Below are positions 49,423 through 52,034 of a stretch of DNA of 64,000 bases, in pieces. Both the position numbers and the translations under genes were made by a program. Each line of letters begins with the position of its first letter. Positions within the stretch are counted from its first letter, which is position 1. The notes under the pieces were generated by a model. The model had not been told where the DNA came from. It made no database searches and saw nothing but the letters and a program-made list of their open reading frames with translations. Source of the stretch: Thermoleophilia bacterium (lineage in GTDB: Bacteria; Actinomycetota; Thermoleophilia; Gaiellales; Gaiellaceae); the NCBI GenBank assembly GCA_041393535.1, contig JAWKJY010000010.1, forward strand, positions 50,363 through 114,362, given 5' to 3'.

Positions 49423-50454
49423 TCAGGCGGCCGCGCGCGCCGGCCGGGACGACCGCGCTGCGCGCACGAGCGCCTCGATCGAGGCGTCCGGCACGTCCCA
49501 CGGAATCTCCGGGCCCTGGTTCGAGAGGACGAAGCCCGGTCCCGCGGCGGCGATCACGCGCCGGGCCTCGAACTCGACCCGCTCCGGCTCGAAGCGCAGC
49601 AGCTTGAGGTTGTTGACGTTGCCGATCAGCGCCTTGCCGGGACCGATCGCCCGGCGGGCCGCGTCGACGCGGTCGCTCTCGCCGATCAGGAAGCCGGCGA
49701 CGCCCAGGTCGCGCAGGTGCGGCAGGAACGGCAGGCCGTGGCCGACGAGCTCGAGCGCGAGCAGGCCCGGCGTGCGCGCCACGAACCGCTCGAGCGCCGG
49801 GCGCGCGTCGCGCAGGAACGTCGCCTCGTCGAGGATCGTGGCGGAGGCGATGCCCTCGGCGACGACGACGAGGTCGCAGCCGGCGTCGAGCTGGGCCGAG
49901 GCCCAGCGCGACGCGTACGCGGTCGTCTTCTCGAGCAGGGTCGGCAGGAAGCGTCGCCGCACCGGCTCCGGCTCGAGCAGCAGCGAGAGGAGCTTCCGCG
50001 TGCCCATCAGCATCGTCGGCAGCGAGAACGGGCCGATCACCGCGCCGACGATCAGCTGCTGGCCCTTGACCCGCCGCGCGAGCGCCTCGGCGGCGCGCAG
50101 CGTGTGCCGGCAGTACGGGTGCCGGGTCGGGTCGGGCACGGCCACGCGCTCGATGTCCTCGTAGGACGACAGGACCATCCCGTTGACCGACGGCGGGCCG
50201 TCGTCGTGCAGGTCGATCCCGGCGCCCCACGGCAGCACGTCCTGGACGACGTGCGGCATCGCGAACACCGCGTCGTGGCCGAAGCGGTCGAGCAGCGCGA
50301 GCTGGCCCTCCGCGATCCGGCCCGGCTCGCCGAAGTAGCGCCCGAGCGGGACGCCGAGCACCCGGGCGCCCTGCATCAGGAGGACGGGCGCGACCGGCGT
50401 CACGTCGACCGGGTCGCCGAGCACCGCGGCGACGATCCGCTCCGCGCCCGTCAC
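49423..50454 (-). CDS. URO-D-superfamily protein of the MtaA/MtbA (corrinoid methyltransferase) type rather than HemE
   Basis: 343 aa TIM-barrel-like family pattern. No RQAGR HemE motif and no HxC zinc motif seen. GTG 50454 makes a GTGA overlap with the stop of the MCP-B12 gene. Confidence 0.7.
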   Translation of the reverse strand: MTGAERIVAAVLGDPVDVTPVAPVLLMQGARVLGVPLGRYFGEPGRIAEGQLALLDRFGHDAVFAMPHVVQDVLPWGAGIDLHDDGPPSVNGMVLSSYEDIERVAVPDPTRHPYCRHTLRAAEALARRVKGQQLIVGAVIGPFSLPTMLMGTRKLLSLLLEPEPVRRRFLPTLLEKTTAYASRWASAQLDAGCDLVVVAEGIASATILDEATFLRDARPALERFVARTPGLLALELVGHGLPFLPHLRDLGVAGFLIGESDRVDAARRAIGPGKALIGNVNNLKLLRFEPERVEFEARRVIAAAGPGFVLSNQGPEIPWDVPDASIEALVRAARSSRPARAAA

Positions 50455-52034
50455 GCGGCCTGCCCGAGCGTCAGGTGGCGGACGAGCCGGACCGCGCCGG
50501 CCGGGTCGAACGCGACCCCGTCGGCCCCGACCCGCTCGCGCAGCGTCGGGTCGACGAGGAACGGCGCGCCGCCGGCGATCACGCGGATGCGGTGGAGGCC
50601 GCGGCGCCGCAGCAGCTCCTTCAGCTCGGGGACGTGCTTCGCCGTGTGCAGGAGCAGCGTCGAGACGCCGATCACCGTCGCGCCCTCGCGGACGGCGGCG
50701 TCGACGAGGTCCTCGTTGCGCACGCTCAGGCCGAGGTCGACGACGCGGAAGCCGTCGGCGCGCAGGGCGGCGACGACGATCCGGCGGCCGAGGTCGTGGA
50801 AGTCCTGCCAGGCGTTCCCGATCACGATCGGAGGGCCGTCCCGTCCGTCCGAGACGAGCGGCTCAAGCCGCTCGAGCGCCGCCTCGAGGATGCGGGCGTT
50901 CCGGAAGTGCTCGATCGTCGGGCGCCCGGGCCCGGCCGCGTTGTACGCGCGCTGGGCGGCGCCGGCCAGGCGGCCGAGCAGCTCGTCGGGCGCGACGTCG
51001 GCGGCGAGGGCCTGCTCGAGCGCCCGGGCCGCGTCGTCGGGCCGGTCGTCGACCAGCGCCCGCTCGAAGGCGGCCTCGAAGGCGCCGAGCGAGCGGATCG
51101 CGGGCCGCGCCGGCGCCGGCGCCGCCTCGAGCCAGAGCGCGTCGCCGGCGCGCGCGCCCGCGGCGAGCTCCGCCGCGAGCGCGGAGGCCGCCTGATCCAC
51201 GTGCTCCCCGTGCAGCCGCGCCTGCTCGACCAGCTCCTGCAGCTCGACCTGGCCGTAGGCGAGCTCCTGGACGCGTCCGGTCGGCTCGAGGAGCGCGTCC
51301 GCGCGACCGTCGGTCTCGACCGCGGCGCCCTCGAGCACCCGGACGGCGGCCTCCGCGCCGGCGAGCGCCTCGAGGTTCTCGCCGAAGCGCTCGGCGCCCC
51401 GGCCGATCGCCTCGGCGATCCGGTCGGCGGCGGCGACGACGTCAGAGACGACCTCGCGCGTCGTCACCGAGAGCGAGCCCACCTCCTCGGCGACCACCTG
51501 GAACCCGACCCCGGCTGCGCCCGCGCGGGCCGCCTCGATCCGCGCGTTCAGCGCGAGCAGCTTGGTCCGGTCGGCGATGCCGCGGATCTCGGCCATCCGC
51601 TCGTGGATCTCGCCGACCTGCCGGTTCAGCTCCGCCAGCTCGGCCTCGAAGGCGCGGATCGAGCCCGCGTAGCTCTCGATCGCCGCGGCGGCGTGCCCGG
51701 TGGCCGAGACGATCTCCCCGACGGCGTCGCCCAGGCCGGTCGACGTGCGGGAGAGCCGCTCGGCGACCTCGGCGAAGCCGCCGCGGCGCGCGAGCTCGAG
51801 CGCGCGGCCGGTGACCGCCAGGAGGGCCCGGTTCGACGCGCGCGCGTCCTCCGCCCGGGCGCGGTGCGCGTGGAGCGCCCGCGCCAGCGAGCCGACCCCG
51901 TCGGCGAGCGGGTGCCCGGCCGGCGGCTCGGGCTCCGGCTCGGCCGGTTGCGAGGGAGCGGGCGCGACCGGAGCCGGCTCGACGTGGACGTCGAGCTCGC
52001 TCGCTGCGCGTCGCCTGCTGCCCCAGAGCCACAT
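50451..52034 (-). CDS. soluble MCP signalling domain fused to a cobalamin-binding (B12-binding_2 + B12-binding) domain
   Basis: The middle region carries [37 protein letters not shown]. The C-terminal 220 aa carry DxHxxG (DFHDLG), SxL (GVSTLLL) and GG (VIAGGAP). No TM helix. Confidence 0.8.
   Translation of the reverse strand: [527 protein letters not shown]

Follow-up and report, generated by a model that had tools for sequence, protein, structure and literature searches.

How could a bacterium use a chemoreceptor that is joined to a cobalamin-binding domain, and what would a methyltransferase-like partner encoded next to it contribute? These questions are raised by a pair of genes in a stretch of 64,000 nucleotides from a Thermoleophilia bacterium (assembly GCA_041393535.1, contig JAWKJY010000010.1, positions 50,363 to 114,362 of the forward strand; "the window" in what follows). 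The first gene encodes a protein in which a signaling domain of the type found in methyl-accepting chemotaxis proteins (MCPs) is followed by a cobalamin (B12)-binding module, and the second encodes a protein with the fold of uroporphyrinogen decarboxylase (URO-D). An earlier annotation made from the letters of the DNA, referred to here as the original prediction, placed the two open reading frames (ORFs) on the minus strand, and both are present where it put them:

50451..52034, minus strand: MCP-B12 fusion gene encoding a soluble protein of 527 amino acids (ORF list and Pfam), 100% identical to the NCBI entry 'MAG: cobalamin-dependent protein [Thermoleophilia bacterium]', in which MAG stands for metagenome-assembled genome.
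49423..50454, minus strand: gene of the URO-D-fold, MtaA-like partner of 343 amino acids (PF01208, AlphaFold2 (AF2) and Foldseek), which belongs to a discrete clade without zinc ligands.
50451..50454, minus strand: GTGA overlap of the fusion stop and the partner start, pointing to translational coupling; an equivalent ATGA is found at 10 of the 12 complete junctions of other loci.

The overlap, also described in the original prediction, is read directly from the junction letters gcc gcG TGA cgg, in which the TGA stop of the fusion occupies 50451-50453 and the GTG start of the partner 50452-50454.

We consider it highly likely that the two proteins together form a B12-based sensory unit of some kind. 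As to how such a unit would work, the reading that we put first, by analogy with corrinoid methyltransferase systems and at somewhat less than an even chance, is that fusion and partner perform methyl-transfer-coupled sensing; cells would probably steer by the chemical state of the cobalamin bound to the fusion. The evidence concerns the reality of the fusion, the properties of its two halves, the partner and its pairing with the fusion, and the genomic surroundings of this and related pairs.

Among 5.8 billion proteins searched, 38 full-length relatives of the fusion were found; they are 37-83% identical to it and all have both Pfam domains. When 1.84 billion representatives at 50% identity were searched with a profile, approximately 32 full-length clusters emerged, along with fragments and some B12 proteins that are not fused. 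Where a source is named, it is a MAG, and these MAGs belong to Thermoleophilia, Limnochordales/Firmicutes, Planctomycetota, Hydrogenedentes, Anaerolineaceae/Chloroflexota, Eisenbacteria, Calditrichaceae and Gammaproteobacteria, with no cultured organism among the named carriers. The family is rare yet phylogenetically wide, being present in at least eight phyla. Conservation within the family was assessed in an alignment of 36 full-length fusion homologues from other assemblies. The original prediction had cautioned that an assembly error or a frameshift might have joined an MCP gene to a corrinoid-protein gene, and possible indels elsewhere in the window (the Pfam match of a phosphoglycerate kinase is split in two) as well as the fragmented upstream region of a related locus (L025) could be taken to speak for such an artefact. 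We reject this explanation because the contiguous architecture and the junction between the two halves are conserved in all 36 homologues, which come from independent assemblies and phyla; the chance that the fusion is artefactual is negligible.

As proposed in the original prediction, the N-terminal half of the fusion contains an MCP signaling domain. In a hidden Markov model (HMM) run, the Pfam model MCPsignal (PF00015) matched residues 128-264 with 56.5 bits, above its cut-off of 34.6; the corresponding score of a canonical MCP in the same window is 148.8 bits. The proposed lack of a transmembrane (TM) helix was likewise confirmed, as the maximum Kyte-Doolittle mean over 19 residues is 1.24, which is too low for such a helix. 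This half of the protein can be divided as follows:

51912..52034, minus strand: variable Pro/Ala-rich N-terminus, residues 1-41, predicted to be disordered (AF2, DSSP).
51123..51911, minus strand: MCP-type coiled-coil region, residues 42-304 (AF2 helix boundaries).
51468..51569, minus strand: hairpin tip, residues 156-189 (gap-free alignment to the Tm14 tip fragments 4jpb_B and 3ur1_C).

In the AF2 model, the predicted local distance difference test (pLDDT) score is below 50 at residues 1-22 and 33-36 with block means of 38-51 over residues 1-40, and residues 1-41 have no secondary structure according to DSSP and are unconserved in the family alignment. The N-arm of the hairpin comprises residues 42-84, a conserved GG break at 85-86 and residues 87 to approximately 173, and the C-arm comprises residues from approximately 177 to 304, giving approximately 130 residues per arm with the tip placed near residues 172-177 by AF2 and homology. 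From the predicted helix boundaries, the arm length can be estimated at approximately 18-19 heptads. Because the AF2 monomer gives residues 87-304 as a single helix with no turn, the hairpin rests on homology and not on the model: the family profile matches Tm14 (3g6b/3g67), TM1143 (2ch7) and Tsr (1qu7) across both arms.

Within the hairpin, conservation is highest at the tip. N163, I166, G175, F178, V181, A182 and E184 are invariant in the family alignment, and the MCP-typical residues N163, E167, R170, G172, G175, F178 and V181 are kept. The original prediction had noted that the tip deviates from those of the two canonical MCPs in the window, and this is borne out at four positions, R165, A173, A176 and G186, that are fixed family-wide; at two of these, both normally conserved tip positions, A173 replaces Glu and A176 replaces Arg/Lys. 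The further suggestion that docking to CheA/CheW may be unusual is not established by these substitutions because Tm14, which has been crystallized with CheA/CheW, is likewise non-canonical at two of the four positions (T for A383 and Q for R404). The relaxed methylation consensus [ASTG]xx[EQ][EQ]xx[ASTG] has no match in the window protein, and no methylation-site position is conserved across the 36 homologues. In the absence of conserved glutamate methylation sites, it appears from the sequences that classical CheR/CheB adaptation is probably not used by this family. Some accepted MCP classes also lack Glu/Gln methylation sites.

The C-terminal half has the helical cap and the Rossmann-type B12-binding domain that the original prediction had assigned to it:

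50856..51116, minus strand: four-helix cap, residues 307-393, continuous with the MCP C-arm (AF2, TIGR02370).
50457..50831, minus strand: Rossmann-type B12-binding domain, residues 402-526 (PF02310 and Foldseek).
50787..50804, minus strand: DFHDLG (D411-x-H413-x-x-G416), motif of the lower axial His ligand (translation), invariant in 36 of 36 homologues.

The Pfam model B12-binding (PF02310) matches residues 403-511 with 78.8 bits, above its cut-off of 32.1. Evidence for the cap comes from the NCBIfam model TIGR02370, which aligns to residues 326-505 with 63.3 bits against a cut-off of 215.3, from helices at residues 307-328, 332-344, 349-367 and 373-393 in the AF2 model, and from Foldseek alignments of approximately 210 columns that span whole corrinoid proteins. 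The Pfam model B12-binding_2 (PF02607) gave no match to the fusion at E < 0.1 and does match unfused relatives, and the fusion falls far below all cut-offs of the MtbC, MtgC and MtaC equivalog models. All three classical fingerprints, DxHxxG, SxL and GG, had been reported in the original prediction and are found as DFHDLG, GVSTLLL and AGGAP; D411, H413, G416, S458, L460 and G489 are invariant in the 36 homologues and G488 is nearly so. The transition from the MCP hairpin to the cap is likewise conserved family-wide, at W301, P306, F319, E320, A326, D330 and P332.

The best relatives of this half in the PDB by sequence profile are MttC (7xcn), the Moorella corrinoid protein 1y80, MtmC, 4jgi and MetH, and the best structural matches of the B12 module are 4jgi, MttC (7xcn), the MetH Cob domain, MtmC and MtaC. 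Sequence and modeled structure together suggest that the B12 module is of the methyltransferase-cognate type and binds cobalamin in the His-on mode.

The fusion has an obligate partner. By tblastn, the partner gene lies directly 3' of the B12 gene in 13 of 14 loci, and as the contig of the 14th ends inside the fusion, pairing is found across phyla in all 13 loci in which the contig continues. Three more distant members reached from the partner side (L019, L022 and L024) again have a gene with MCPsignal and B12-binding upstream. Together with translational coupling, these data make the case for a functional pair stronger than the original prediction could know. The partner is also the more conserved of the two proteins: of its 12 full-length matches across phyla, 10 show 58-64% identity, versus approximately 40-50% for the fusion.

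The partner matches the Pfam URO-D model (PF01208) with 155 bits. Its best NCBIfam match is mtaA_cmuA (TIGR01463) with 87.1 bits against a cut-off of 235.4; PRK06252 gives 82.7 bits against a cut-off of 244, and hemE (TIGR01464) 25.6 bits against a cut-off of 302.95. The AF2 model (pLDDT 93.3) is most similar in Foldseek to MtaA (4ay7/4ay8; TM-score 0.88-0.90, root mean square deviation 2.1-2.3 Å, 24% identity) and HemE structures rank next with TM-scores of 0.78-0.84. As stated in the original prediction, the partner is therefore MtaA-like rather than HemE-like. Its clade comprises approximately 84 relatives with scores of 233-692 bits, the full-length members being at least 38% identical, and the next URO-D protein beyond the clade drops to 61 bits and 26% identity. 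Alignment to MtaA locates two segments of interest:

49741..49752, minus strand: E235-L-V237-G238, at the position of the MtaA zinc motif H-x-C (HMMER alignment to 4ay7).
49501..49518, minus strand: Q313-G-P315-E316-I-P318, at the position of the third MtaA zinc ligand in G-C-G (alignment to 4ay7).

The three zinc ligands of MtaA, H, C and C, thus align to E235, V237 and P315, and E235, V237, G238, Q313, P315 and P318 are invariant in 43 clade members with G314 and E316 nearly so. The 'MRQAGR' motif of HemE aligns to 'LMQGAR', in which the Arg is unconserved in the clade. The alignments to HemE and 4ay7 hence bear out the earlier observation that both the RQAGR motif and the HxC zinc motif are missing. 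The Asp of the HemE segment 'FSDIL', which we take to be the catalytic Asp, aligns to H68. A true HemE is ruled out by the score of 25.6 bits, the absence of RQAGR and the replacement of this Asp by H68, and a true MtaA by the failure to reach the cut-off and the loss of the zinc ligands. The residues D61, P67/H68, D72, S144, S204, E235, N281, N282, Q313, P315 and P318 are invariant in the clade and G314 and E316 nearly so, and they sit at or just after the C-terminal ends of predicted strands, i.e. on the active-site face of the TIM barrel. Because the conserved residues line this face, the alignment and the model argue for a working enzyme rather than a decayed relic. URO-D-fold methyltransferase I enzymes that methylate a corrinoid protein without zinc are known, namely CdmB and earlier MtvB (PMC13222342, 2026), so that methyl transfer is compatible with a lost zinc site. 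The description of the locus in the original prediction as a corrinoid protein plus methyltransferase module consequently holds for the pairing and for the MtaA-like fold; as every MtaA/CmuA cut-off was failed and the clade is separate, methyl transfer itself is plausible yet unproven.

The surroundings of the pair were surveyed in six annotated neighborhoods of fusion genes and in 55 flanking ORFs from seven further loci. No Pfam family recurs next to the pair in this survey, and neither a second methyltransferase (methyltransferase II, MTII; MttB/MtaB-type) nor an activase (RACo/RamA-type) was present. A metabolic methyltransferase operon is rejected on these grounds. A cheA or cheW gene beside the pair was absent from every locus examined.

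Distant members of the partner clade are also found without a fused MCP, and these unfused members are preceded by a stand-alone corrinoid protein with the same family motifs. One such pair (L020:7349-10719; L020/L021) lies between an upstream gene for a TPR histidine kinase and a downstream gene for a GAF-PAS-adenylate/guanylate cyclase, and another (L023:4417-9826, on the same contig as L014) is flanked by PatA_N plus Roadblock (MglB-like), GAF and Arf-like small GTPase genes. Two further loci, L025 and L026, were reached by a search with the isolated B12 half of the fusion. In L026:3440-7268, an operon of overlapping genes encodes a corrinoid protein with B12-binding_2 and B12-binding domains, a URO-D-like protein of a sister clade that is 30% identical to the window partner, a DUF1638-HisKA_2/HWE histidine kinase and a response regulator. 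From its gene content this operon looks like a sister system in which a B12 and URO-D pair feeds a two-component pathway, and would link DUF1638 to corrinoid sensing. In L025:4458-6627, three short ORFs without Pfam matches lie upstream of a gene call of 208 amino acids with only the B12 domain and a URO-D partner; rather than encoding a genuine free-standing corrinoid protein, the locus probably derives from an MCP-B12 fusion by a frameshift or by decay. Because the flanks of the fusion pairs contain no metabolic genes and the unfused pairs adjoin signaling genes, we suggest that the role of the pair is sensory and not metabolic, and the occurrence of unfused B12 and URO-D pairs beside other signaling proteins recasts the pair as a general sensory cassette.

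In the mechanism that we propose for methyl-transfer-coupled sensing, the cap would cover the upper corrin face at rest and swing away for docking of the barrel, as in MetH and the Mta/Mtt systems. The partner would dock on the upper face of the corrinoid of the fusion and most likely move a methyl group to or from the cobalt, zinc-free in the manner of CdmB and MtvB and with a small molecule as donor or acceptor. The state of the cofactor, methyl-Co(III) versus Co(I)/Co(II) and cap-on versus partner-bound, would set the position of the cap. As the cap is predicted to be rigidly joined to the MCP C-arm, this state could reach the hairpin and pass down it to CheA/CheW, altering flagellar behavior, and in other lineages the same B12 and URO-D cassette would be wired to other outputs. 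In its most general form, the mechanism has the partner most likely adding a methyl group to the corrinoid, removing one from it or docking on it, and the cap relaying the resulting state to the MCP hairpin.

Several points weigh against this mechanism. On the side of the receptor, the replacement of normally conserved tip residues by A173 and A176, the straight helix of the AF2 monomer and the lack of cheA and cheW beside the pair all count against it. On the side of the partner, the aligned zinc ligands are lost and the mtaA_cmuA cut-off is failed by a wide margin, so that methyl transfer is put forward by analogy; moreover, no methyl donor or acceptor can be named. Corrinoid methylation requires cobalt as Co(I), and genes for a reductive activase are missing near the pair. 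Finally, several of the host lineages are probably aerobic, and all known family members come from uncultured MAGs.

A bolder version of methyl-transfer-coupled sensing, which we regard as unlikely when all its parts are taken jointly, is that the pair is a portable enzyme-coupled cassette. Here, a zinc-free methyltransferase would write the presence of a methyl donor, or the one-carbon/redox state, as a cobalt-methyl mark that is read by a signaling protein; the cobalamin would be the true 'methyl-accepting' site and replace the glutamate sites as signal or adaptation memory; and cyclases, small-GTPase modules and, via the sister clade, kinases would also be fed.

Could the cobalamin report something other than methyl transfer? 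The original prediction listed light among the possible inputs, and a light sensor would work by photolysis of an alkyl-cobalamin (adenosyl- or methyl-) that shifts cap and Rossmann domain and evokes a phototactic or photophobic response to green light, with the partner re-alkylating or resetting the cofactor in the dark. A receptor with such a fast reset would explain the obligate enzyme partner, and the same cap and Rossmann fold is used by the proven photoreceptors CarH, CtMerR and the photocobilins, all of which are among the structural matches, with CarH-type domains ranking lower than the methyltransferase corrinoid proteins. In the PDB profile search, however, methyltransferase corrinoid proteins reach E-values of 1e-26, photocobilins are much weaker and no CarH entry appears at E <= 0.001. 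The signature of the light response in adenosylcobalamin (AdoCbl) photoreceptors is GxxW, EH, GxxH and GxxxP (PMC11796333). Of this signature, the fusion has the His of the lower ligand. In the window protein, E375-H376 opens the last cap helix and Y364 lies eleven residues before, which loosely resembles W-x9-EH of CarH; across the family, at positions equivalent by spacing and helix position and not by direct alignment to CarH, Trp occurs in 1, Glu in 11 and His in 20 of the 36 homologues, and a family-specific motif, [HY][FY]RN, takes the place of the CarH signature. Light as an input is weakened because GxxW and EH are unconserved; in addition, Co(I) is required for re-alkylation, and the surroundings of the pair encode no reductase. 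We regard a light sensor as rather improbable. A sensor of redox state or oxygen (energy taxis), in which cobalt as Co(I), Co(II) or Co(III) reports redox and the partner stabilizes or reads one state without net methyl transfer, is in our opinion somewhat less probable again. Cofactor-based soluble or cytoplasmic MCP sensors are established and an Aer structure is among the sequence matches, the absence of an activase nearby would leave the oxidation state to be set by the cell, and some pairs have fitting neighbors: a protoglobin-MCP gene in one scanned locus, cytochrome bd in L015, and Rieske/cytochrome b with multiheme cytochromes in L022. These neighbors are, on the other hand, unconserved between loci, and an obligatory, highly conserved barrel with an intact active-site face would be left unexplained.

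The two remaining explanations concern the supply of cobalamin and the output of the receptor. If apo and holo forms of the fusion signaled differently, the cell could monitor its internal B12 supply while the partner discriminates or loads corrinoid forms; the invariance of the full His-on binding motif and the ability of URO-D-fold proteins to bind tetrapyrroles or corrins in the barrel agree with such a sensor of availability, which is nevertheless improbable to a degree that only an artefact exceeds among the explanations considered, given that cofactor occupancy is slow relative to chemotactic time scales, that simple occupancy sensing needs no enzyme-like partner, and that the loci have no link to B12 transport or synthesis and no cobalamin riboswitch nearby. 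Little more probable is a non-chemotactic output, in which the hairpin would act as a scaffold or regulator that places a corrinoid enzyme at arrays or at the pole, or controls genes like the receptor-like Tls. PMC12623472 documents an MCP-like protein with a non-CheA output, and the absence of cheA and cheW next to the pair, the family-specific tip substitutions and the lack of conserved methylation sites are all compatible with an output of this type. It is opposed by the conservation of the tip, which exceeds that of the rest of the hairpin and includes the MCP-typical residues, by the gap-free alignment of the tip to a Tm14 fragment crystallized with CheA/CheW, and by the location of the pair within a flagellar cluster in this window.

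The cluster in which the pair is embedded comprises FlhF, FlhA, FlhB, FliR, FliQ, FliP, FliA, FliN, MotB and MotA and also has rod/hook genes, flagellins and FliW; the immediate neighbors of the pair, DUF454 and an AI-2E transporter, are not common to other loci. The upstream region of the pair, in a window with a G+C content of approximately 75%, contains one likely translation signal:

52039..52044, minus strand: Shine-Dalgarno-like GGGGAG, 4 nt 5' of the fusion ATG at 52032-52034 (sequence reading).

The open frame of the fusion has no earlier in-frame ATG, GTG or TTG 5' of this ATG. Around the pair, a promoter scan gave no sigma-70-like site and an RNA-element scan neither a cobalamin riboswitch nor other RNA elements, and the sole terminator-like hairpin of a terminator scan is located after fliA. 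The sequence GCCGATCG at 52047-52054 on the minus strand, 12 nt 5' of the fusion ATG, resembles the -10 box of flagellar sigma-28, and the gene of a FliA-type sigma factor lies near it at 48022-48882; start codon and Shine-Dalgarno sequence are too near for GCCGATCG to be interpreted as such a box. Divergent from the fusion gene lies the gene of an AI-2E family transporter (52156-53235, plus strand), an adjacency that is perhaps a coincidence. The cobalamin-binding domain of HaAI-2E took only hydroxocobalamin and was light-independent (PMC11796333, the SignatureFinder paper).

Among other genes of the window, two tandem canonical MCP genes (61125-64000, minus strand) have standard tips; a HAMP domain is present in one, and the upstream gene is cut off by the end of the window. 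No cheA or cheW was noticed among the window ORFs scanned. Inside the flagellar cluster are genes for a response-regulator-GGDEF diguanylate cyclase (34647-35696, minus strand) and a PilZ/YcgR-like protein (39380-40084, minus strand), and the flagellin genes at 32917-33777 and 37527-38561 together with fliW adjoin them; from their sequences, the GGDEF and PilZ/YcgR-like genes are predicted to form a cyclic di-GMP brake circuit beside the chemosensory genes. Farther away, a protein of 504 amino acids (8472-9986, plus strand) consists mostly of RTX calcium-binding nonapeptide repeats (12 stretches, 254 bits). The phosphoglycerate kinase and GAPDH ORFs (4935-6119 and 6031-7065, both minus strand) overlap by approximately 90 nt, and the Pfam match of the phosphoglycerate kinase falls into two stretches. 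Both observations point to a frameshift or indel in this MAG assembly, consistent with the indel clusters mentioned in the original prediction.

If the partner indeed methylates the cobalamin of the receptor, the pair would represent a new sensing logic that uses catalysis on a cofactor instead of reversible ligand binding. Protein-bound B12, which serves in catalysis and in light sensing, would then have a third role in biology. A discrete clade of 'uroporphyrinogen decarboxylase family proteins' that lacks annotation would gain a function, and a new switch that can be addressed chemically or optically might become available. The module is compact, consisting of two soluble proteins, and is conserved in phyla of which few members have been cultured (Hydrogenedentota, Eisenbacteria, Planctomycetota, Chloroflexota, Calditrichota, Limnochordales and Thermoleophilia).

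How does the pair compare with known systems? Chemoreceptors sense via ligand-binding domains or via bound flavin adenine dinucleotide (FAD), heme or zinc. We are aware of no published chemoreceptor that uses a corrinoid for sensing, nor of one with an obligate enzyme partner. The original prediction knew of no characterized B12-binding chemoreceptor, and our literature search gave none either, nor any description of the pairing of fusion and partner, with most subscription journals outside its coverage, so that absence is not proof. As a cofactor-based cytoplasmic chemoreceptor the fusion would belong to an established kind, and the principle by which it senses could well be new. TlpD of Helicobacter pylori, Aer (FAD) and HemAT (heme) are cytoplasmic MCPs that sense via a bound metal or cofactor, and the sensor domain of TlpD (CZB) is C-terminal to the signaling hairpin, as in the fusion. 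In contrast to these receptors, which need no partner, the sensor of the fusion is a corrinoid domain together with a separately encoded enzyme-like protein. The best PDB match to the hairpin of the fusion is Tm14 of Thermotoga maritima (3G67/3G6B; tip fragments 3UR1 and 4JPB), with E-values of 2e-27 by profile and 3e-13 by single sequence. Both proteins are soluble without a TM helix and have non-canonical tips, with a residue other than Ala after 'LALNA' and no Arg in 'EV-x-x-LS'. Unlike the fusion, Tm14 has no sensor domain or cofactor and keeps the Glu and Lys where the fusion family has Ala, and the hairpin of the fusion is longer.

MttC (7XCN), MtmC (3EZX), MtaC (2I2X), the D. hafniense protein 4JGI and the MetH cobalamin domain share with the fusion the cap, the Rossmann fold and the motifs DxHxxG, SxL and GG, and each adjoins a cognate barrel protein, as the fusion does; the fusion differs from all of them in its attached MCP hairpin and in having no pair of substrate methyltransferase and MTII and no activase nearby. 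The photoreceptors CarH/LitR and CtMerR and the photocobilins likewise use a cobalamin module of this fold as a signaling input, whereas their output is DNA binding or enzymatic, they need no partner enzyme, and their GxxW/EH signature is not conserved in the fusion family. For the partner, MtaA (4AY7) is the best match in fold and sequence and acts on a protein-bound corrinoid; the partner differs from it in the replacement of the zinc ligands His, Cys and Cys by Glu235, Val237 and Pro315 and in forming a discrete clade with a drop from 233 to 61 bits at its border. CdmB (chloromethane) and MtvB are, as the partner would be, zinc-free URO-D-like TIM barrels, and they methylate a corrinoid protein from a small-molecule donor (PMC13222342). 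No close sequence relationship between the partner and CdmB/MtvB was detected, and unlike the partner these enzymes belong to three-component metabolic systems (methyltransferase I, corrinoid protein, and MTII plus activase) of anaerobic acetogens.

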